NCBI RefSeq assembly: GCF_055900595.2
Contig: NZ_CM148325.1
Direction: 5' to 3' (one strand)
Length of the DNA stretch: 64,000 nucleotides
Shown: positions 50,192-61,183 of the stretch, piece by piece
Layout: each line of letters begins with the position of its first letter
Position numbering within the stretch: position 1 is the first letter of the stretch
Program-made: the position numbers and the translations under genes
Notes under the pieces: generated by a model
Seen by the model: the letters and a program-made list of their open reading frames with translations, nothing else
Told to the model about the DNA's origin: nothing
The model's database searches: none

Positions 50192-50316
50192 GCAGATAAT
50201 TTACTCTCTACGTAATCAACCTGATTTGCCGAATCCCGCTCATCGGCGATGATACCCCCCGTAATGCGTGGTCCTTATTTCCGATAAGTTTACTTGAGTC
50301 TTTAGCTTCCCATTTC

Positions 50317-50346
50317 AGCCCACTCTCCCCTGTGTGGGCTTTTTTC
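50317..50346 (+). terminator. Rho-independent terminator-like hairpin AGCCCAC-N10-GTGGGCT followed by TTTTTT
   Basis: 7-bp GC-rich stem plus T6 run on the plus strand, about 125 bp after the yahN stop. Confidence 0.5.
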
Positions 50347-50417
50347 ATTTGTCTGCTTCAGTGAGTAGCTGGCCATGCTCCATCCACTCTGCAAGGATGA
50401 TAATAAGAGGATCTGAT

Positions 50418-50600
50418 TCAGAAGAGTTTTGAAAAATTGGACCGCCATCGAGGCCTCGAACCCCGTACCATACAACAATCCTGGTTGTCGTCTGCTCTTC
50501 CTGATGAGCTAATGGCGGTTTGTGATATGAGCCTTACAGCATATTGTCTGTCAGGCTTGAGTGCGATGCGTAAGATACAGAAAAGACCCCACACAAACAT
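50418..50600 (-). CDS. Hypothetical small protein (60 aa) in a low-GC intergenic stretch
   Basis: Track ORF only; no recognisable motif; may correspond to the yahM position or be spurious. Confidence 0.2.
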   Translation of the reverse strand: MFVWGLFCILRIALKPDRQYAVRLISQTAISSSGRADDNQDCCMVRGSRPRWRSNFSKLF

Positions 50601-50820
50601 GATGGAATTATGATTTTTTTCATATGAATGTCAACCAACACATTCATAAAACACTCGCACAAGTTCACTTTTTAAGCAACATGACGCCGATCACAACAAA
50701 ATATCGGCGAAAAAGGAGGGTAAATGCCATTTGACGTAGAGATAAGCAGATGAAATGATTACCCGCTTTGCGATTCACTCTCTGATGGAATAACAAATTG
50801 GAGATGGAAAAGTTTCTAAA

Positions 50821-51878: not shown

Positions 51879-52928
51879 TCAGTCTGTTAGTGTGCGATTA
51901 TCGATAACAAAACGATATTTCACATCTCCTCGCAGCATTCGCTCATAGGCTTCATTAATTTGATCGGCCCGAATCATCTCTATATCAGCCACGATGCCAT
52001 GTTCGGCGCAAAAATCGAGCATCTCCTGTGTTTCTGGAATGCCGCCAATCATAGAGCCGGCTATCGCGCGGCGTTTCATGATCAGGTTGAAAACTTCCGG
52101 CGATTTATGCGGTGTCGCAGGCGCACCAACCAGCGTCATGGTGCCATCGCGCTTCAGCAAGGTGGTAAAATCGTCGAGATTATGTGGCGCAGCTACGGTA
52201 TTCAAAATGAAATCGAAACTCTTCACATGAGCCGCCATCTCATCGGCATTGCGCGAGTTAACAACTTCATCGGCCCCAAGGGCTTTTGCCGCTTCGCGTT
52301 TTGACTCAGACGTGGTAAACGCCACTACATGCGCCCCCATCGAGTGGGCCAGCTTTATCCCCATATGCCCCAGACCGCCAATGCCGACCACTCCCACTTT
52401 TTTACCCGGCCCGGCCTGCCAGTGACGCAGCGGCGAGTACGTGGTGATCCCTGCACACAATAAAGGCGCCACCGCCGCCAGTTGCGCTTGCGGGTGACGA
52501 ATACGCAGAACATATCGCTCGTGAACGACAATCTGTTGTGAGTAGCCGCCCAGCGTATGGCCCGGTTCGTCCGGCGTCGGCGAGTTATAGGTGCCGGTCA
52601 TGTGATCACAGTAGTTTTCCAGCCCGTCTTCACACTCTTCGCAATGTTTACAACTGTCGACAATGCAGCCGACACCGACCAGATCGCCCGGCGCATATTT
52701 TTCTACCTGATCACCAACGGCTACCACGCGCCCTACAATTTCATGGCCCGGCACGCAGGGATAAACCGTCCCCGCCCACTCGGAACGGACCTGGTGGATA
52801 TCGGAATGGCAGACGCCACAGTAAGCGATTTCAATTTTGACATCATGCGGTCCCGGTTCACGCCGGGTAATATCCATCGGTTCCAGCGGTTGTTTAGCGG
52901 AATATGCACCAACAGCTTTGATCTTCAT
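51879..52928 (-). CDS. yahK: Zinc-dependent NADPH aldehyde reductase
   Basis: 349 aa MKIKAVGAYSAKQPLEPMDITRREPGPHDVKIEIAYCGVCHSD... with GHEIVG zinc-ADH motifs. Confidence 0.9.
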   Translation of the reverse strand: MKIKAVGAYSAKQPLEPMDITRREPGPHDVKIEIAYCGVCHSDIHQVRSEWAGTVYPCVPGHEIVGRVVAVGDQVEKYAPGDLVGVGCIVDSCKHCEECEDGLENYCDHMTGTYNSPTPDEPGHTLGGYSQQIVVHERYVLRIRHPQAQLAAVAPLLCAGITTYSPLRHWQAGPGKKVGVVGIGGLGHMGIKLAHSMGAHVVAFTTSESKREAAKALGADEVVNSRNADEMAAHVKSFDFILNTVAAPHNLDDFTTLLKRDGTMTLVGAPATPHKSPEVFNLIMKRRAIAGSMIGGIPETQEMLDFCAEHGIVADIEMIRADQINEAYERMLRGDVKYRFVIDNRTLTD

Positions 52929-53014: not shown

Positions 53015-54001
53015 TTAAACCACCCGATCCAGTCCCAACATGCCGCGAGCCTGAATGAAACAGAGCAGCAACGTTCCCCATAAGGCCATCGTCAGGTAGG
53101 GGCTTATCCCGAGAATATTGAAGCCGCTTTCAATAATTTGCAGAAGAAACAGCGCCAGCACCATACCAATTATCCGCCCGCTGCCGCCGTCCGGATTAAC
53201 CCCGCCGAGTACTGCCGCGAGGATTGACACCAGCAAGTACGATTCGCCATAAGAGGCCTTAGCCGAGTTGAGTTTCGACATCATCAAAAATGCCGCTACC
53301 GCACAAAGCAAGGCGGAAATGACATACACCCATATCAGCACCCGACGCGTGTTAATACCGGAGTAAAGTGTTGCTCGTTCGTTAGAACCAATCAGATAAA
53401 TGGATTTACCGAGCGGCGTTTTCTCCAGCAATATCCACAGCCCCAGCGCCACTGCGGTAAACAACCACATCGGTAGCGGAATACCGAACCACTGTGCATG
53501 ATTCAACCACAGCACCCATGAGGGATAATTGGCAATGGCGCTACCGCCTGTCACCAGAATATTTACCCCTTTGAGCAACGTCATCATCCCAAGCGTTGCA
53601 AGAATTGGCGACACTCGAATACCGGCAATCAATACGCCATTACATAAACCAATTATCACCGCCGCACCAGCGCCCGCCAGCAGCGTAGCGACAACCGTAG
53701 TAATACCCGGCGGATACTGAGTCGCCACCCACGCCATCACCAGTGAACAGGCGTTAGCGGTAGCAATAATTGACAAGTTAATGCCGCCACAAAGCATGGT
53801 CACCGCCATAGCCAACGCCAGAATGCCCAGCACGGGCATTTGCGAAGCGACAGACTGGAAGTTACTTATCGACCAGAAAATCTCCGGCATAGTAATGCTG
53901 AACGCGGCAACAGTTAGCACCAGCAGGCCGATCAAATAAAACTCAACGTTATTACGCCACGATTTTTTCATAGCAGACTCCGGTTCTGATGCTGACTCCA
54001 C
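53015..54001 (-). CDS. Sugar ABC transporter permease (CUT2/ribose-like family)
   Basis: 328 aa polytopic protein; 34-bp overlap with the upstream permease. Confidence 0.8.
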   Translation of the reverse strand: MESASEPESAMKKSWRNNVEFYLIGLLVLTVAAFSITMPEIFWSISNFQSVASQMPVLGILALAMAVTMLCGGINLSIIATANACSLVMAWVATQYPPGITTVVATLLAGAGAAVIIGLCNGVLIAGIRVSPILATLGMMTLLKGVNILVTGGSAIANYPSWVLWLNHAQWFGIPLPMWLFTAVALGLWILLEKTPLGKSIYLIGSNERATLYSGINTRRVLIWVYVISALLCAVAAFLMMSKLNSAKASYGESYLLVSILAAVLGGVNPDGGSGRIIGMVLALFLLQIIESGFNILGISPYLTMALWGTLLLCFIQARGMLGLDRVV

Positions 54002-54939
54002 GCCGTGGCGCTAATGCTGGCAACGATGATGATGCCTGTGATCAATGTTTGCCAGTAAGACGAGACTCCCAATAAATTTAGCCCGTTTTGCATCACTGCC
54101 AACAACACCACGCCGAGCAAAGTACCGGTTAACGTGCCGCGCCCGCCGAGCAAACTAGTGCCGCCAAGCACCACCGCAGCCAGTACTGTCAGCTCATAAC
54201 CCAGAAGAGAATCGGGGGCGACAGTCATCACCGTCCACGACTGCACTACACCCGCAGCACCAGACATCAATCCCATATAGCCGTAAACGAAAAGTTGCAG
54301 TTTCAGCACGCTAAAGCCGATGCGACTGGCTGATTCACGGTTCCCGCCAAGGGCATAAATTTTGCGCCCTACACTGGTGAAATTCATGATAAACGCTGTC
54401 AGCAGCACCACCGTAATCATGGCGATCAGCGGCAGACCAAGGCCATAGTCATAGCCGTCAGCATCGGTGTACTTGAACAACATTACCCCCTGCTCAAACC
54501 ACGGCGGAAAGTCGTACAGCCACACACCTTTACTCAACCATAACAGCAGGCCATAGAAAATATTCAGCGTCGAAATGGTGATGATGATAGAAGGCACCCG
54601 TAGGCGATTAACCAGTAAGGCGTTTATTAAGCCAAGTAAAATGCCGATGCCGCCCGCCAGGGCAAACGCGACAGCAAAGTTGCCACCCATTTTTTGTAGC
54701 AACAGCACCATGCCGTATTGCGCAATGATGGTCATTGCCGGAAACGAAATATCAATTCCACCGGAAATTAACACCACAAACAAACCACAGGCGAGAATAG
54801 TCAACATGGCATAGTTATTGGCGAGATCGTACAAATTACCGAATGTCAGAAACTCGTCGCTGCGCCAGGCAAGGCCAACAAACAGCACTATAATCAGTAA
54901 TGCCAGCCAGAATTCATGGCGTTTTTTCAGTTCAGCCAT
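53968..54939 (-). CDS. Sugar ABC transporter permease (CUT2/ribose-like family)
   Basis: 323 aa polytopic protein; overlaps the ATPase gene by 8 bp. Confidence 0.8.
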   Translation of the reverse strand: MAELKKRHEFWLALLIIVLFVGLAWRSDEFLTFGNLYDLANNYAMLTILACGLFVVLISGGIDISFPAMTIIAQYGMVLLLQKMGGNFAVAFALAGGIGILLGLINALLVNRLRVPSIIITISTLNIFYGLLLWLSKGVWLYDFPPWFEQGVMLFKYTDADGYDYGLGLPLIAMITVVLLTAFIMNFTSVGRKIYALGGNRESASRIGFSVLKLQLFVYGYMGLMSGAAGVVQSWTVMTVAPDSLLGYELTVLAAVVLGGTSLLGGRGTLTGTLLGVVLLAVMQNGLNLLGVSSYWQTLITGIIIVASISATAWSQHQNRSLL

Positions 54940-56431
54940 TTACCACCTCCGCAATCCTGGCCTGAGAACTGCTGTCAGGCAGGAAGCTATGGGTGATCTG
55001 ACCTTTTTGCATTACCAAAATCCGGTGGCTTTGATACCACGCTTCTTCAATTTCATCGCAGATCATCAATACCGCAATGCCATGAGCCGCCAGATCGCTG
55101 ATAATGCCGTATATTCCTGCTTTGTTGGCGATATCAACACCGACAGTCGGGCTATCGAGAATCAACAGTCGTGGCCCAATCGCCAGCCATTTGGCGATCG
55201 ATACTCGCTGCGCGTTACCCCCGGAAAGCGTATTCACCGGGAGATGTGGGTCAGAGACTTTGATGGTCAATGCCTTAATTAGCCTGTCCACCAGGTCACG
55301 CACTTTAGCTTCACTCAGAAAGCCGAAGCGATCTTTTACCTTGTGAAAAACAGTGCTAATGATGTTGTCTTCAATAGATTGCGCCATCACCAAACCGCGC
55401 GACATGCGATCTTCCGAAACATAACCAATACCGTGGCGGATGGCGTCCTGGTTACTATGCAGTGTAACCGGCTGACCGTTGATGAGGATCTCACCAGCAT
55501 CCGGTCGGGTCATACCAAACAGACTCAGACATAATTCCGTGCGCCCCGCACCAAGCAGGCCAACAATCGACACCACTTCGCCCGCTTCCACCCGCAAGTT
55601 AATATTTTGATATTCCCCATGACGACTTAAATTACGCACCTCCAGCACTGGGGTGCTGGATTTTCCCTGCCACAACTCTCGCACCTGATATTCAAACTCC
55701 TGGCCGGTCATCAGGAAACCGAGTTGTTTTGTGGTCATCTCTGCAGCCGGAAAGGTCCCGACCAGCTCACCATCTTTCAACACTGAAATACGGTCGGAAA
55801 CTTCCATCACCTCTTCCAGACGATGACTGACGAAGACCACGCAGATCCCGCGTTCCCGCAATTGATGCACCACCTGTAATAACCCTTGCACTTCCTGATG
55901 GGTCAGCGAAGCGGTTGGTTCATCCATCACGATCAACCGTGCGTCCTGCGCCAGTGCACGGCAAATTGCCACCAGCTGACAGCGGGCAATTGAAAGCTCA
56001 GAAACGAGCGTATCCAGTGGCAATGTGACGTTAATACTGGTCATTGCCGCCTGCGCCACCTCACGCAGACGACGTCGGTTAACAAACAGTCCGTGGTGAT
56101 AGTGATTCACGGCGATATTCTCCCAGACACTCAGGTTAGGAAATAAAGAGAGGTCCTGATAAATCACCTGAATCCCCTGCGCCACCGAAGCGGCGGGTGT
56201 CAGCTTTGACCAGTTTTTCCCACCAAGCGTAATTTCCGCCCCCTCATCCGGGCGATAAACACCGGACATAATTTTAATCAACGTCGATTTACCACAGCCG
56301 TTTTGCCCGGCAAGGCAGTGCACCTCACCCGACATAAAGTCGAGAGAAACATCGCGCAGCGCTCGCGTGGCATGAAACGTTTTGTTGATATGACGAAGGG
56401 AAAGGAAGGTTTCCATAGCATCCCCTGGCAA
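54932..56431 (-). CDS. Sugar ABC transporter ATP-binding protein with two nucleotide-binding domains
   Basis: 499 aa; two Walker A motifs (GQNGCGKST and GLLGAGRTE), signature LSGGNAQR; start may be METFLSL at 56416. Confidence 0.85.
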   Translation of the reverse strand: MPGDAMETFLSLRHINKTFHATRALRDVSLDFMSGEVHCLAGQNGCGKSTLIKIMSGVYRPDEGAEITLGGKNWSKLTPAASVAQGIQVIYQDLSLFPNLSVWENIAVNHYHHGLFVNRRRLREVAQAAMTSINVTLPLDTLVSELSIARCQLVAICRALAQDARLIVMDEPTASLTHQEVQGLLQVVHQLRERGICVVFVSHRLEEVMEVSDRISVLKDGELVGTFPAAEMTTKQLGFLMTGQEFEYQVRELWQGKSSTPVLEVRNLSRHGEYQNINLRVEAGEVVSIVGLLGAGRTELCLSLFGMTRPDAGEILINGQPVTLHSNQDAIRHGIGYVSEDRMSRGLVMAQSIEDNIISTVFHKVKDRFGFLSEAKVRDLVDRLIKALTIKVSDPHLPVNTLSGGNAQRVSIAKWLAIGPRLLILDSPTVGVDIANKAGIYGIISDLAAHGIAVLMICDEIEEAWYQSHRILVMQKGQITHSFLPDSSSQARIAEVVNG

Positions 56432-56464
56432 TAAGAATCGGGGCTTTCGCCCCGAAGAAATGGA

Positions 56465-57451
56465 TTAATAAAGTGAGTCAATATTGTCTTTGTTGACCAG
56501 TAATACCTTATGGAAACGGATAATTCGCTTATCCATATCTACGTCGGCCTTACCGAGATTCTCCATTTCTAATCCAGGTTTGATCTCTTCACCCTTCAGC
56601 AACGTGCTGGCGACGGCCGCGAGTGCGTAACCTGCAGAGGCCGGATCGTAAGTAATCCCTTCGGTGATATCACCACTTTTAATCAATGATGCCGCCTGTG
56701 AAGGGATCATCATGCCATAGACTGCGACTTTATTTTTCGCCCGTTTCTCTTTCACCGCACGTCCCGCGCCAATCGGACCGTTTGAACCAAAGGAGACAAC
56801 CGCTTTCAAGTCAGGATAGGTTTTCATCAGGTCCAGTGTGGTACGACGTGAGTCATCCACACTCTCGGCAACCGGCATGCGGCGGGTAACTTCATGCATA
56901 TCCGGGTAATGCTCTTTCTGGTATTTCACCAGCAAGTCAGCCCATAAGTTATGCTGCGGCACGGTCAAACTACCCACATAAATCACATAGCCGCCCTTGC
57001 CACCCATGCGTTTCGCCATATGTTCAACATATTCAGCGGCAAATTTTTCGTTATCAATGATTTCGATATCCCAGTTAGCACTTGGCTGACCGGGGGATTC
57101 GTTGGTCAGAACCACAATTCCGGCATCTCGCGCTTTTTTGAATACCGGTTCTAGCACGTTGGCATCGTTTGGCACGATAGTAATTGCGTTAACCTTACGA
57201 GCGATTAAATCCTCAATAATTTTAACCTGTTGCGGAGCATCAGTACTTGAAGGTCCCACCTGTGACGCATTAACCCCAAAGGCTTTACCTGCCTCGACCA
57301 CACCTTCGCCCATGCGATTAAACCACGGCATACCATCGACTTTAGAGATATTCACCACGACTTTTTCCGCTGCCTGGAGCGGCGAGGAAATTAGCGCAGC
57401 GCCTAATAACAGCGAAGACACCATATTGATAACAAAACGTTTATTCATCAT
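56465..57451 (-). CDS. Periplasmic sugar-binding protein (CUT2 family)
   Basis: 328 aa with signal peptide MMNKRFVINMVSSLLLGAALISSPLQA. Confidence 0.8.
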   Translation of the reverse strand: MMNKRFVINMVSSLLLGAALISSPLQAAEKVVVNISKVDGMPWFNRMGEGVVEAGKAFGVNASQVGPSSTDAPQQVKIIEDLIARKVNAITIVPNDANVLEPVFKKARDAGIVVLTNESPGQPSANWDIEIIDNEKFAAEYVEHMAKRMGGKGGYVIYVGSLTVPQHNLWADLLVKYQKEHYPDMHEVTRRMPVAESVDDSRRTTLDLMKTYPDLKAVVSFGSNGPIGAGRAVKEKRAKNKVAVYGMMIPSQAASLIKSGDITEGITYDPASAGYALAAVASTLLKGEEIKPGLEMENLGKADVDMDKRIIRFHKVLLVNKDNIDSLY

Positions 57452-57701
57452 TTCAGCCTCATTGCAGGGTAGTCAGGAAGTGTTCGCCCAAATTAGCGCG
57501 CTGGAGAGAATAAGAATTTTCGAATATTTTTATGCAGAATAAACAGCCCTATTTCAGGCAGCTATTAAAAATTTGGTTATAAATATGGACAAAACGGGCA
57601 GTAACAATAAGTGTGACAATCATCACGTAAAAAATAGCAAAATAAACAAAATTAGCGATACTTTATGTTTATGAGCTTATTTCGCGTAGAAAAATAGTTA
57701 T

Positions 57702-58145
57702 CTACACAATGTCAATAAGGGCATATTCTTCAAAGATAACGTCCATTTCGGGTGAATAGCATCCTTCTGCCTGGAAAAAACGACGGTGTTCATTACGCCA
57801 ATATTCAAGACTGAGGTCACCTTCACCTTCCTTACGGGCAAGCTCCGCGGTGACATCAGAAAAGCGCAGTAAATGCAGGCCAATAACTCTGATAACACAT
57901 ACAGGCTCACCACGGCTATTTTCTACAATCTTATACTCACCAATCATCGGAAATGCGTTGTCTTCAATACATCCCGCCAGCGAACCACAGGAAGCTGTTT
58001 TAACACCAGTCGCAATCAACGTTGCGAGGTGATCGGCCAACGCTTCTGAATCGCCAAAAGTACAAAAGGAAGCATGGGGATATTTTTGTGAGATTTTTTC
58101 TTTTATGGTCATGAGAATATTTTCGCGATTACGGAAAAAAATCAC
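57702..58145 (-). CDS. ASCH-domain (PUA-like) protein
   Basis: 147 aa; GVKTASCG and EYWRNEHRRFF resemble ASCH-domain motifs; start may be MTIKEK at 58112. Confidence 0.5.
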   Translation of the reverse strand: MIFFRNRENILMTIKEKISQKYPHASFCTFGDSEALADHLATLIATGVKTASCGSLAGCIEDNAFPMIGEYKIVENSRGEPVCVIRVIGLHLLRFSDVTAELARKEGEGDLSLEYWRNEHRRFFQAEGCYSPEMDVIFEEYALIDIV

Positions 58146-58408: not shown

Positions 58409-59791
58409 TCAACCTGCCACACTCCCCCACACCATTTGCCCTTTATGGAACGTTGCGGTTCTCGGCGAGATACGCGCCACCGCCTCGGCGGAACAGGAGG
58501 CGTCCACCAGCACAAAGCTGGCGTCATCCTGCGCTTTAGGCCAGACGCGCTCGCCTTTTTCGTTGAGCGGCAATACATCACCAGTGGCTAAAAACAGCGA
58601 GCGGGACAAATTCTGTTCGTTAGGACGAATATAGAGCTGCGCGTACAGATTGGCTTTTTCCAGCATGTCGCCCAGGCCGTAAGGCGACCAGTGGTCGATA
58701 ACGCTGTCGGTGCCGGTCATCACTTTTACGCCTTTGTCGTGCAGCTGTTTGAGCGGCATATGCAACGTGCCAATCGGCACCGTCGAGGCGATCGAGATTT
58801 GCTGCGCCGCCATCCGGTTCGCCAGTTCATCTACTTGTTGCTCGTTGAGGGTAGCCAGCGCAAAGGCGTGGCTGATGGTCAGCTTGCCTTTTAGCTGCGG
58901 CGTTTTCTCCACTGTTTCAACCATATAATTGATGGCTGCCACGCCCGCCGGAGTGGTTTCGTGCAGATGAATATCGACGCCTTTGTCGTAGTCCAGCGCA
59001 ATCTGGAACATGGTGTCGAGGGATTTTTCCATCGCGCCATCAACACTGGTCGGGTCCAGCCCGCCGACGTAATGCGCGCCTGCCTGCATTGCTTCACGCA
59101 TCAAGGGTTCCGATTTCGACAGCAGCAAACCGTGCTGCGGGAAGGCGACGATTTCACACTCGAAGCCCGCCTGACGTCGCGCCAGCACCGCCTGCAAATT
59201 TTGCAGATTTTTCAGGCCGGAAACCGGTTCGATATTGCAGTGGCTGCGGGCAATGGTGGTGCCTTTCGACTGCAATAAATCGATCAGTTTTTCTGCCCGC
59301 TCCTGCGTGTAGGGTTGCAGTTCCGGCAGCATTTTTTGCTCGAGTTTGATCATGTCCTGGATAGTGGTGCCTGCCGGGCGATTGAGCGAGCGCCACGGCC
59401 CACCGTAAAAGGTTTTGTCGAGATGAATATGCATGTCGCGGGTGGTGGGCAGCATCAGCTTACCGCCAGCGTCATAGTGCGGCAGCGTGGCGTCCGGATG
59501 CTGCTTGTTCTCGCGCAGCGCGACAATTTTGCCGTCCTGAATCTCCACGGTCTGGCGCGCCGTGCGGGTCTGCACCGCCACGCCATTTTCATAGTCAAAA
59601 CCGGTTTCCAGCAGCACGTTGTCGAGATAGTAGTGCGGGTCAGTGATTTTCATGGTGTTATTCGCGTCGCAGTGGGTGGTGCCAGAGACCTCCGCATGGG
59701 CGAATGGCACAGAGGTACCAAACAGCGCGGCGGCGGTGACCATCTTACCGCTCTGGCTCAAAAACTCACGACGGCTATTGTTTTCTTTCAT
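58409..59791 (-). CDS. yahJ: Amidohydrolase-family deaminase with twin-arginine (Tat) signal peptide
   Basis: 460 aa; N-terminus MKENNSRREFLSQSGKMVTAAALFGTSVPFAHA carries an SRREFL Tat motif. Confidence 0.8.
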   Translation of the reverse strand: MKENNSRREFLSQSGKMVTAAALFGTSVPFAHAEVSGTTHCDANNTMKITDPHYYLDNVLLETGFDYENGVAVQTRTARQTVEIQDGKIVALRENKQHPDATLPHYDAGGKLMLPTTRDMHIHLDKTFYGGPWRSLNRPAGTTIQDMIKLEQKMLPELQPYTQERAEKLIDLLQSKGTTIARSHCNIEPVSGLKNLQNLQAVLARRQAGFECEIVAFPQHGLLLSKSEPLMREAMQAGAHYVGGLDPTSVDGAMEKSLDTMFQIALDYDKGVDIHLHETTPAGVAAINYMVETVEKTPQLKGKLTISHAFALATLNEQQVDELANRMAAQQISIASTVPIGTLHMPLKQLHDKGVKVMTGTDSVIDHWSPYGLGDMLEKANLYAQLYIRPNEQNLSRSLFLATGDVLPLNEKGERVWPKAQDDASFVLVDASCSAEAVARISPRTATFHKGQMVWGSVAG

Positions 59792-59800
59792 CTTACGTCC

Positions 59801-60751
59801 TTACGTTTTAATAATATGGGTGCCCGTCTCGCCACGCAGCGCCGCGGGCAGGCATTCCGGCGTGGTGATAATCACTTCTTTGCCGCCCTGTTCTAAAAAT
59901 GTCAGGCTGGCGATGATTTTTGGCAACATGCTGCCAGGCGGGAAATGCCCTTCCTGCATATAGCGGGTCATGGTGGCAATATCCACCCGATCCAGCGCCT
60001 GCTGCTGCGGTTTGCCAAAATGAATACAGACTTTTTCCACGCCGGTGGTGATCACCAGAATGTCGGCGTGAATTTCGCGGGCCAGCAGCGCGGTGGAGAG
60101 ATCTTTGTCGATAACCGCGTCCACGCTTTGGTAATCTCCCGCGTCAGTACGCACCACCGGAATTCCGCCACCGCCCGCACCAATCACCACAAACCCTTGT
60201 TGGATCAGCGCTTTAATGGCAGGTGCTTCAACAATACGTTTCGGTTCCGGCGAGGCGACCACGCGGCGATAGCCGCGTCCGGCATCTTCAACAAAACGCC
60301 AGTCAGGGTTTGCCTTTTGTAATTCGTTACGCTGGCTTTCACTGAAGAATGCGCCAATGGGCTTGGTGGGGTGAGCAAACCCCGGATCGTTTTTATCCAC
60401 TTCCACCTGAGTCACCACAGTGACGGCTTTTTTCTCGCCGTGGCGCGCCAGCCGATTGTTCAGCGCCTGTTGGATCAAGTAGCCAATGCCGCCTTGCGTA
60501 TCTGCCACACAGTTCGCCAGCGGCGTTAAGGGCAGCCCTTCGCGCTCGTGGGCAATCTCCGCACGGCGTAGATCCAGCCCAACCTGCGGCCCGTTGCCGT
60601 GGGTCAGCACAATGTCGTAATCGGAAGCCAGCATTTCCAGCACCGTCTCGGCGACGGCCTTCACCGCCTCCGCCTGATGCTCAATCGACTGGCTGGCGTT
60701 ATCTTTGATAATGCTGTTGCCACCAATGGCAACGACCACAAGTTCTTTCAT
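59801..60751 (-). CDS. yahI: Carbamate kinase-like protein
   Basis: 316 aa MKELVVVAIGGNSIIKDNASQS... amino-acid-kinase fold. Confidence 0.85.
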   Translation of the reverse strand: MKELVVVAIGGNSIIKDNASQSIEHQAEAVKAVAETVLEMLASDYDIVLTHGNGPQVGLDLRRAEIAHEREGLPLTPLANCVADTQGGIGYLIQQALNNRLARHGEKKAVTVVTQVEVDKNDPGFAHPTKPIGAFFSESQRNELQKANPDWRFVEDAGRGYRRVVASPEPKRIVEAPAIKALIQQGFVVIGAGGGGIPVVRTDAGDYQSVDAVIDKDLSTALLAREIHADILVITTGVEKVCIHFGKPQQQALDRVDIATMTRYMQEGHFPPGSMLPKIIASLTFLEQGGKEVIITTPECLPAALRGETGTHIIKT

Positions 60752-60801
60752 GTTGTTATGTCCGCTACAGAGGGTGATGGGGTTATGACCAACGCCAGAC
60801 A

Positions 60802-61160
60802 GCCTGATGCGCTACGCTTATCAGGCCTACAGATTCTTGTGCCATTCGTAGGCCGGATAAGGCGTCCACGCCGCATCCGGCAATGGTGACAAATGCCTGA
60901 TGCGCTACGCTTATCAGGCCTACAGATTCTCGCGCCACTCGTAGGCCGGATAAGGCGTTCACGCCACAACCGGCAATGGTGACAAATGCCTGATGCGCTA
61001 CGCTTATCAGGCCTACAGATTCTTGCGCCACTCGTAGGCTGGATAAGGCGTTCACGCCGCATCCGGCAATCGTGACAAATGCCTGATGCGCTACGCTTAT
61101 CAGGCCTACAGATTCTTGCGCCACTCGTAGGCCGGATAAGGCGTTCACGCCGCATCCGGC
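60802..61160. repeat. BIME cluster: four tandem ~92-bp units
   Basis: Unit GCCTGATGCGCTACGCTTATCAGGCCTACAGATTCTTGCGCCACTCGTAGGCCGGATAAGGCGTTCACGCCGCATCCGGCAA repeated four times; track ORFs 60748-61263 and 60783-61205 run through it. Confidence 0.88.
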
Positions 61161-61183
61161 AGAGACAACGCGCACTTTGCAGG

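Follow-up and report, generated by a model that had tools for sequence, protein, structure and literature searches.

A Four-Gene ABC Transporter between yahK and yahJ of Escherichia coli Is Most Probably the Published D-Ribulose/L-Arabinose Importer Aau, with an Independent ASCH-Domain Gene Upstream

In the window, the whole 64,000-nt stretch of contig NZ_CM148325.1 (RefSeq assembly GCF_055900595.2) that was analysed here, the interval between yahK and yahJ holds four transporter genes and, upstream of them, a gene for an ASCH-domain protein, all on the minus strand (Table 1; the transporter genes are labelled after the published system that they match). The open reading frame listing for 53015-58145 agrees with the original prediction on this point. 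The same prediction described the four genes as co-directional and overlapping, which holds for their orientation, for aauB/aauC (8 nt) and, with the likely aauD start, for aauC/aauD (4 nt), but not for aauA and aauB, which are separated by a spacer of 33-48 nt containing a GC-rich hairpin. Hairpins of the attenuator or RNA-stabiliser kind are common downstream of binding-protein genes, and the one found here may serve the operon in either of these two roles. The open frame of aauB extends to a TTG at 56431, giving a 499-aa ORF (54932-56431), and the ATG at 56416 is likely its real start; in a record that is 100% identical, PGAP annotates a shorter ATPase of 467 aa, which we count against the reading preferred below. 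For aauD, where the ATG at 53971 is likewise the likely start, PGAP annotates a 957-nt gene in a 100% identical record. The ASCH gene had been predicted as a separate upstream gene of 147 aa. It is separate and upstream, with 250 bp between it and the similarly oriented aauA, but its product is likely 136 aa, since this is the length of most of its homologues, which favours the start at 58112. The GC content of the operon (0.48-0.53) is similar to that of its flanks.

Table 1. Genes and predicted regulatory features of the yahK-yahJ interval (positions in the window)
Feature	Position	Strand	Remarks
yahK	51879-52928		flanking gene
aauD, permease 2	53015..53971	(-)	318 aa from the likely start, ATG at 53971; ORF 53015-54001
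aauC, permease 1	53968..54939	(-)	323 aa
aauB, ATPase with two ABC domains	54932..56416	(-)	494 aa from the likely start, ATG at 56416
GC-rich hairpin with T-rich tail	56438..56455	(-)	between aauA and aauB
aauA, periplasmic solute-binding protein	56465..57451	(-)	328 aa; Sec signal peptide, predicted cleavage after LQA26
predicted AraC site	57563..57600	(-)	two 17-bp direct-repeat half-sites, 4-bp spacer
predicted CRP site	57612..57627	(-)	CGTGATGATTGTCACA; 1 mismatch to TGTGA-N6-TCACA
ASCH-domain gene	57702..58112	(-)	136 aa (likely start); ORF 57702-58145; YhfF/COG4405 type
yahJ	58409-59791		flanking gene

That the four genes encode a complete CUT2-type sugar ABC importer of ribose/AI-2-like architecture, as first proposed, is borne out by full-length NCBIfam matches to AraG/YtfR/XylG/RbsA, RbsC/AraH/LsrC/LsrD and RhaS/LsrB, all of which score below the respective equivalog cut-offs. 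AauB is a single polypeptide with two ABC domains that aligns end to end, over ~500 positions, with the AraG, XylG, RbsA and LsrA models; it also has full-length, sub-cut-off matches to YtfR and AlsA, and its best match is AraG, at 425 bits against a cut-off of 689. The permease AauC matches AraH, RbsC, GguB and LsrC/LsrD, and AauD matches RbsC, LsrD and AraH. The matches of AauA are to the RhaS, LsrB, AlsB and RbsB models and to many sugar-binding proteins of the PDB. The system thus has the RbsC/AraH-type permeases and the type I periplasmic sugar-binding protein that define CUT2 (TC 3.A.1.2). As a member of the Lsr, RbsB, AlsB, YtfQ, XylF or MglB families, AauA is ruled out by the NCBIfam cut-offs.

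The substrate, which had been judged not evident from the sequence, can now be named from published work. The binding protein is identical over its full length to PDB 9I1M at 325 of 328 positions (E = 2.7e-213), and 9I1M is AauA with D-ribulose bound (PMC12307932). It belongs to Aau ("accessory L-arabinose uptake"), encoded by Z0415-Z0419 in O-island 17 of EHEC (PMC11127945, PMC12307932; Cottam et al., Nat Commun 2024 and 2025), which consists of the same four genes at the same yahJ/ASCH-yahK locus. In O157:H7 Sakai (ECs_0374-0378) the order is again yahJ, ASCH, binding protein, ATPase, two permeases and yahK, and the aau gene order of the window recurs in 2211 complete genomes. AauA binds D-ribulose with a Kd of 1.98 uM, as against 598 uM for L-arabinose, and its ligand is contacted by K37, W43, E118, H167, E196 and S223 (PMC12307932). 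All six residues are found in AauA of the window and are invariant across 77 orthologues; the three differences from the crystallised protein are S23A, which lies in the signal peptide, D201V and E297Q. Given this 99% identity to a protein characterised by ITC and crystallography, AauA of the window would be expected to bind D-ribulose with high affinity and to serve its transport. The mature part is also ~93% identical to PDB 3D02, on which a literature search found nothing. Our preferred reading, to which we assign a probability of about 93%, is that the four genes are aauABCD, the known E. coli CUT2-family importer of D-ribulose and L-arabinose, and that the ASCH gene is an independent and older resident of the interval. 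The transporter itself is therefore already published and not new.

The copy of aau in the window comes from a non-O157 background, with a 100% match in the canine isolate Z0117EC0005, and its genes are 96.7-98.2% identical to those of Sakai at the nucleotide level. The aauB frame is intact here, whereas the Sakai allele carries a TAG at codon 87 (nt 259), a nonsense codon shared by EDL933 and TUV93-0 and matching the published aauB defect of TUV93-0 (PMC11127945). Because the ATPase is intact and all of the ligand-contact residues are present, we expect the allele of the window to be functional, in contrast to those of the O157:H7 reference strains.

Taken together with the published work, the following mode of action can be envisioned. 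AauA would be exported to the periplasm, where it would bind alpha-D-ribulose tightly and L-arabinose weakly and pass its ligand on to the permeases AauC and AauD, with the tandem ATPase AauB as the source of power. Transcription would start in the ASCH-aauA intergenic region and require AraC and L-arabinose, and the imported D-ribulose would be phosphorylated by the L-ribulokinase AraB and enter the pentose phosphate pathway. With induction by AraC and L-arabinose and phosphorylation by AraB, it follows that Aau would work only when L-arabinose is also present; in EHEC, D-ribulose uptake indeed requires the presence of L-arabinose, and the D-ribulokinase step is carried out by AraB (PMC12307932). 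In mice, deletion of aau lowers fitness 10-100-fold (PMC11127945), and Aau bears on the competition for pentoses between pathogenic and commensal E. coli in the gut, a story that has already been published. The ligand affinities, crystal structure, AraC dependence, AraB kinase step and mouse fitness are all taken from that work. The present analysis contributes the identity to AauA and the integrity of the genes, and adds to the published account the distribution among genomes, the deletion remnants in K-12, the conserved CRP/AraC promoter motifs, the neighbours of the orthologues and the lack of linkage between the ASCH gene and aau outside Escherichia.

Expression of aau depends on AraC and L-arabinose; reporter activity is given by a ~300-bp fragment and is lost in an araC deletion mutant (PMC11127945). 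The AraC site predicted here falls inside that fragment. It consists of the half-sites I1 TGCCCGTTTTGTCCATA and I2 TAACCAAATTTTTAATA with the spacer TTTA, the same layout as in K-12 araI (TAGCATTTTTATCCATA, AGAT, TAGCGGATCCTACCTGA). A strict scan for the two half-sites, allowing <=3 mismatches, found no match in the window; in a looser scan the E. coli half-sites are weak (2 + 3 mismatches, i.e. 5 in 20 specified positions), and two further sites in the 64 kb score equally well. The case for the AraC site is consequently one of position and of conservation across genera rather than of the E. coli sequence by itself. In an alignment of 10 upstream sequences from 6 genera, TCCATA is invariant, with the cross-genus consensus TAGCnTTTTTATCCATA-TTTA-TAGCAG, and the CRP-site halves GTGA and TCACA are invariant or nearly so. 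The window has 3 CRP-type sites where chance would give 1.8, so that the CRP match does not by itself exceed chance expectation, and scans for promoter and terminator consensus sequences gave results no richer than those with shuffled sequence. We infer from the araBAD-like arrangement, with two AraC half-sites downstream of a CRP site, that AraC and CRP may act directly on aau at 57563-57627; the predicted site is concrete and testable.

The regulation by AraC raises the question of whether Aau could be mainly an additional L-arabinose scavenger, with D-ribulose as a side activity. L-arabinose is the only inducer, a mutant lacking araE is rescued in part on L-arabinose when Aau is overexpressed (PMC11127945), and orthologues lie beside araC-araBA in Providencia, Budvicia, Limnobaculum and Leminorella. 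However, the affinity of AauA for L-arabinose is more than 200-fold weaker than for D-ribulose, an aau deletion mutant has no L-arabinose growth defect in vitro (PMC11127945, PMC12307932), and the six ligand-contact residues also show no variation in the clade that comes with its own FGGY pentulose kinase of the D-ribulose type, all of which makes this role improbable. Nor is Aau a second AraFGH, the canonical high-affinity L-arabinose ABC transporter, with which it shares AraC/L-arabinose regulation and a related CUT2 ATPase: it has two permease genes instead of a single araH, the AraH equivalog model scores 157.7 on an aau permease against a cut-off of 378, and AauA prefers a different ligand and is unrelated to AraF at the level of family models, RhaS and LsrB being the closest. 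An autoinducer-2 (Lsr-like) or ribose importer is suggested by the current RefSeq/PGAP product name of aauA, "autoinducer 2 ABC transporter substrate-binding protein", by the detection of LsrB structures as homologues (80-88 bits), and by the subunit layout of LsrACDB, a distantly related binding protein, a tandem ATPase and two permeases. Yet the system falls short of every Lsr equivalog cut-off (LsrA 386.9 against 586, LsrC 114.9 against 388, LsrD 146.1 against 500, LsrB 110.8 against 384), and so it does not belong to Lsr, the membership that the original prediction had named as evidence against itself; AauA likewise scores only 45 against 337 with the RbsB model. No lsrK, lsrR, lsrF or lsrG lies near aau, whose neighbours are only yahK, ASCH and yahJ, and the melting temperature of AauA shifts by only 2 degrees C with D-ribose compared with 16 degrees C with D-ribulose (PMC12307932). 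With a different ligand as well, such an importer has next to no chance of being correct, the lowest that we give to any alternative, and we regard the RefSeq name as misleading.

A further alternative would join the ASCH gene and aauABCD into one functional module, for instance one that takes up a modified nucleoside or sugar and then processes it, a tie that had been hinted at from the outset. Besides their shared orientation and spacing, the two are inherited together almost perfectly in E. coli (2213 of 5426 complete genomes carry aau, 2213 carry ASCH and 2211 carry both), and Z0414, probably the ASCH gene, rises 3.7-fold with L-arabinose, although 1187 genes changed in the same RNA-seq experiment (PMC11127945). 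The co-inheritance, however, is explained by one shared double-deletion allele, as described below. At 79 orthologous loci outside Escherichia there is no ASCH homologue within ~9 kb of the operon (0/79), Escherichia sp. E2593 has ASCH without aau, and a look for conserved ASCH neighbours in other genera showed that the homologues of Yersinia and Kosakonia lie in unrelated contexts. A joint module is accordingly very unlikely, even more so than the L-arabinose scavenger, and we take the ASCH gene to be an older occupant of the interval between yahJ and yahK, independent of aau and an ancestral neighbour of yahJ.

In other bacteria, orthologous operons occur beside araC or beside genes for pentulose kinases. 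At 26 loci the adjoining gene encodes a true AraC equivalog, scoring 355-491 bits where the cut-off is 208, and some of these loci also carry araB and araA. The AraC dependence of Aau may reflect descent from an araC-linked operon, the CRP/AraC promoter having travelled with the four-gene cassette. The Rbl locus of Citrobacter rodentium has the four-gene CUT2 architecture and D-ribulose uptake in common with Aau, and Rbl loci respond to D-ribulose (PMC12307932). In Rbl-like loci, an FGGY pentulose kinase gene and a SIS-domain gene lie directly downstream, and the binding proteins, ~60% identical to AauA, keep the six ligand-contact residues; Aau, by contrast, lacks a dedicated kinase and a dedicated regulator and makes use of AraC and AraB instead.

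In line with the original prediction, the yahK-yahJ interval contains no annotated functional gene in K-12 MG1655, where it spans 376 bp, or in BL21(DE3), where only a 75-nt pseudogene fragment is annotated. The locus is accessory in E. coli, with a carriage of 41% among complete genomes, but the implied insertion of an island relative to K-12 did not hold. The last 72 nt of aauD (53015-53086) survive in both K-12 and BL21, and K-12 keeps 70 nt around the ASCH stop codon, including the last ~48 nt of the gene. Because the "empty" site retains fragments of both genes, K-12 is a deletion derivative of an aau-ASCH locus. Flanking direct repeats, IS elements, integrases and tRNA genes were looked for, and only short repeats at chance level were found. 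In Escherichia E2593, a member of a cryptic clade, aau is deleted at nearly the same junction while ASCH is intact, which can be read as an intermediate between the state with both and the double deletion; the aau-negative E. coli examined appear to share one deletion allele. The K-12 remnants and the 41% carriage are hard to square with the published label of a "horizontally acquired pathogenicity island"; an ancestral segment deleted in K-12-like lineages is the better description of the locus. That O-island 17 is an old Escherichia segment, not a gain of EHEC, and that at the same time the ASCH gene belongs with the yahEFG-yahI-yahJ cluster, is a combined reading that we hold at slightly better than even odds.

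The adjacent yahEFG-yahI-yahJ cluster is of the AllFGH-like/carbamate kinase/amidohydrolase type. The ASCH protein (Pfam PF04266, E = 1.1e-21) has homologues in PDB 1T62 (E = 7e-19) and 3S9X (E = 7e-18), and its homologues are named YhfF in source records; one possible role is that of a deacylase of the YhfF type, associated with this cluster and not with the transporter. It shares the ASCH fold family with the YqfB-type amidohydrolases, which are N4-acetylcytidine deacetylases with the octapeptide GxKxx[E/T/S]xR and catalytic Lys/Thr, Arg and Glu (bioRxiv 10.64898/2026.02.27.708502). A sequence search with the ASCH protein as query did not retrieve YqfB at E <= 1. The corresponding octapeptide, GVKTASCG, keeps the Gly, Lys and Ser/Thr positions and has Gly in place of Arg; the YhfF/COG4405 subgroup to which the protein belongs (1T62, 3S9X) differs from YqfB in having Gly or Ser for this Arg and in a conserved EGEGD motif.

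The four-gene transporter between yahK and yahJ is the known Aau system, and the copy in the window is probably of a functional form, because of the identity of its AauA, the conserved contact residues, the gene order and the intact ATPase gene. In a search of solved structures, the binding protein was identical to PDB 9I1M at 325/328 residues over the full length, with 3D02 (~93% identical over the mature protein) and 5BRA (186 bits) also found. 9I1M is AauA of EHEC Aau, crystallised with alpha-D-ribulose (Cottam et al., Nat Commun 2025; PMC12307932), and the six ligand-contact residues listed there (K37, W43, E118, H167, E196 and S223) are 6/6 present in the window AauA. The order in O157:H7 Sakai is identical: yahJ, a 411-nt hypothetical gene that is the ASCH gene, binding protein, ATPase, two permeases and yahK. 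Nucleotide identity to Sakai is 96.7-98.3% for these genes and 95-96% for the flanking yah genes. The Sakai ATPase gene has TAG at codon 87 (the nt 259 nonsense mutation), while that of the window is intact.

The ORF list of the window places five minus-strand genes, all in one direction, between yahK and yahJ. The sugar importer architecture of the original prediction was confirmed as CUT2 by NCBIfam, with every match below the equivalog cut-off, and the ASCH domain was borne out by Pfam. The predicted co-directionality also held, as did the overlaps, of a few bases, among the ATPase and two permease genes, but not between the binding-protein and ATPase genes, which are parted by a spacer with a GC-rich hairpin. 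The likely starts were chosen because they agree with the published nt 259 numbering of the O157 mutation (ATPase), with the PGAP placement in a 100% identical record (permease 2), and with the length of most homologues (ASCH). In a 100% identical RefSeq record (L001, 8033-9436), the ATPase is annotated at 467 aa from an internal Met only a few residues ahead of the Walker A motif; in the corresponding region (window 56320-56431), the upstream ATG (494 aa) agrees with both the orthologues and the numbering in the literature.

Coordinates of the genes and predicted regulatory sites in the window
Feature	Position	Strand	Remark
yahK	51879-52928		flank
Permease 2 (aauD)	ORF 53015-54001	minus	likely start 53971
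Permease 1 (aauC)	53968-54939	minus	
Tandem-domain ATPase (aauB)	ORF 54932-56431	minus	likely start ATG 56416
Binding protein (aauA)	56465-57451	minus	328 aa
Predicted AraC site	57563-57600		upstream of aauA; cross-genus alignment
Predicted CRP site	57612-57627		upstream of aauA; cross-genus alignment
ASCH gene	ORF 57702-58145 (147 aa)	minus	likely start 58112, giving 136 aa
yahJ	58409-59791		flank

Aau ("accessory L-arabinose uptake"; Z0415-Z0419, O-island 17) is already known and well characterised. Its promoter is activated by L-arabinose alone, and deletion of araC silences it (PMC11127945, PMC12307932). The view that the substrate is not evident has been overtaken, as the published ligand of AauA is D-ribulose, with a Kd of 1.98 uM vs 598 uM for L-arabinose; D-ribulose enters only once L-arabinose has turned Aau on, and is phosphorylated by AraB (PMC12307932). 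In streptomycin-treated mice, an aau deletion mutant was 10-100-fold less fit (PMC11127945). To this our analysis adds the deletion origin of the K-12 allele, an apparent intermediate allele in a cryptic Escherichia, a predicted CRP/AraC site, araC- and kinase-linked relatives, a misleading RefSeq name and the separation of transporter and ASCH gene. In RefSeq (e.g. NZ_CP098223.1), PGAP calls AauA an "autoinducer 2 ABC transporter substrate-binding protein", and the PDB label of 3D02 is "putative LacI-type transcriptional regulator"; both are misleading, and the LsrB model scores 110.8 on the window AauA against a cut-off of 384.

In line with the original prediction, there is no functional gene in the yahJ-yahK gap of K-12 MG1655, nor in that of BL21(DE3). 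However, the picture it implies, of an island inserted relative to K-12, is the reverse of what happened. In alignments of K-12 and BL21 with the window, the empty allele still contains the 3'-terminal 72 nt of aauD (53015-53086) at 95% identity, 70 nt (57680-57749) at 93% that cover the final 48 nt of the ASCH gene plus 22 nt past its end, and a degenerate stretch aligning to the ASCH-aauA intergenic region up to and including the right half of the predicted CRP site. The aauD remnant can be taken as a true gene fragment because the AauD C-terminus that it encodes is conserved in Klebsiella, Mangrovibacter and others, in unrelated genomic contexts. Given these remnants, K-12 is a deletion derivative that lost ~4.5 kb of aau and ~0.6 kb of ASCH, and not as the uninserted ancestral state. 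Escherichia sp. E2593, where yahE-yahJ and an intact ASCH gene are followed by the aauD 3' remnant directly before yahK, with a junction at most ~10 nt from that of K-12, reads as the intermediate allele in which aau is gone and ASCH intact. In a divergent "E. coli" (L032), aauABCD adjoins yahK at 91-93% nucleotide identity, with the yahK and yahN flanks at 86-89%, a pattern that speaks for aau having been passed down vertically at this site over a long time. Around the locus in the window, there were no genes for mobility or tRNAs and no flanking repeats of note, and the GC content of aau is ordinary. An earlier acquisition by the Escherichia lineage is possible, since no other Escherichia representative (e.g. 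E. albertii, E. fergusonii) and no Salmonella were among the best 80 of 151 matches in the species-representative scan.

At 7462-9000 of L032 (E. coli SCPM-O-B-8794, which is a species representative of its own), a c-di-GMP phosphodiesterase gene resembling yahA (pdeL) immediately precedes aauA, only ~100 nt of the ASCH gene remain and the 9 kb upstream has no yahI/yahJ match; the region thus has a further, distinct deletion allele. In the window, an imperfect inverted repeat of 25 nt (53062-53086/58438-58462, 76% complementary), whose left arm stops precisely where the K-12 deletion meets the aauD remnant, is probably due to chance.

Among 5426 complete E. coli genomes, the 4.56-kb transporter segment (at least 80% coverage) was found in 2213, the ASCH gene in 2213 and the entire 5.55-kb interval in 2211; a 447-nt match span was common to all "empty" genomes sampled. 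This near-perfect co-occurrence is attributable to the common double-deletion allele, and the ASCH gene is best regarded as separate from the transporter because it was linked to aau in 0/79 non-Escherichia loci, has homologues in unrelated contexts in Yersinia canariae and Kosakonia, and occurs without aau in E2593. Its product is of the YhfF/COG4405 type (PDB homologues 1T62 and 3S9X, both sharing its EGEGD motif), with homologues of 50-66% identity common in Enterobacterales. In its ASCH octapeptide, GVKTASCG, the Gly, Lys and Ser are retained, but the Arg of YqfB-type N4-acetylcytidine amidohydrolases is replaced by Gly (bioRxiv 10.64898/2026.02.27.708502). A hydrolase role is plausible. 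In the L-arabinose RNA-seq supplement, where 1187 genes changed, Z0414 ("hypothetical protein"), which is probably the ASCH gene, was up 3.7-fold vs 26-43-fold for Z0415/Z0417 (PMC11127945).

The species-representative scan found the full four-gene operon in many Gammaproteobacteria, with binding proteins 83-92% identical in Klebsiella pneumoniae, Franconibacter, Mangrovibacter, Symbiopectobacterium and Aeromonas, 75-80% in Yersinia, Providencia, Atlantibacter, Leclercia and Budviciaceae, and 66-77% in Pasteurellaceae and Vibrio; Citrobacter amalonaticus, Pluralibacter, Cedecea, Serratia, Pantoea and Rahnella form a separate ~60% clade. Because the six ligand residues are unchanged in 77/77 AauA orthologues, the same ketopentose is probably recognised by the entire family. 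Clustering of adjacent ORFs with NCBIfam checks placed an AraC equivalog beside the operon in 26 loci (355-491 bits vs a cut-off of 208), joined by araB and araA in Providencia, Budvicia, Limnobaculum and Leminorella. An FGGY kinase follows the operon in Pasteurellaceae, and the ~60% clade has, directly downstream, genes for an FGGY pentulose kinase (695 bits; cut-off 409) and a SIS-domain protein, a layout in agreement with the published Rbl locus for D-ribulose utilisation in Citrobacter rodentium (PMC12307932). A 4.7-kb contig labelled as a Bacteroidales metagenome-assembled genome (L004, SFEK01000152.1) encodes proteins 99-100% identical to E. coli aauABCD, and is almost certainly a mis-binned E. 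coli contig.

Upstream of aauA, an alignment of E. coli, L032, Klebsiella, Franconibacter, Mangrovibacter, Symbiopectobacterium and Aeromonas (45% mean column identity) contained two invariant motifs: GTGA-N6-TCACA, a predicted CRP site, and, 11 nt downstream, the consensus TAGCnTTTTTATCCATA-TTTA-TAGCAG, in the araI1-araI2 layout as read from K-12. Both lie inside the ~300-bp fragment with published AraC-dependent reporter activity (PMC11127945). The CRP match by itself is within chance for the window; the E. coli AraC half-sites are degenerate, with 2+3 mismatches and equal scores at two further places in the window, and a stricter AraC pattern had zero matches there. The sites are thus predicted from conservation and position. 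The aau cassette would bring its own ara-type promoter, inherited from araC-linked relatives, so that a regulator-less "island" could obey AraC.

In the neighbouring yah region, Pfam matched the yahE, yahF and yahG products to AllH, HMA_AllF_N and AllG (window 58409-64000; locus L090, 1265-7681); yahI is of the carbamate kinase family and yahJ codes for an amidohydrolase that resembles cytosine deaminase and has a Tat-type signal (RREFL). The yahE/F/G/I/J cluster, with ASCH at its 3' end, has the look of a paralogous allFGH-allK branch, as known from allantoin/oxamate catabolism. Between yahI and yahG, two-frame ORFs at 60750-61260 resolve into ~four tandem copies of a ~30-aa unit (RRERLIRPTSGARICRPDKRSASGICHHCR), indicating a putative REP/BIME-type repeat cluster, which we take to be at the position of K-12 "yahH". 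yahM is marked frameshifted in the identical RefSeq record (window 50200-50800; L001 3309-3549), and yahL stands out as divergent, at 90% to Sakai and 83% to L032, and is rich in AT (GC ~0.38).
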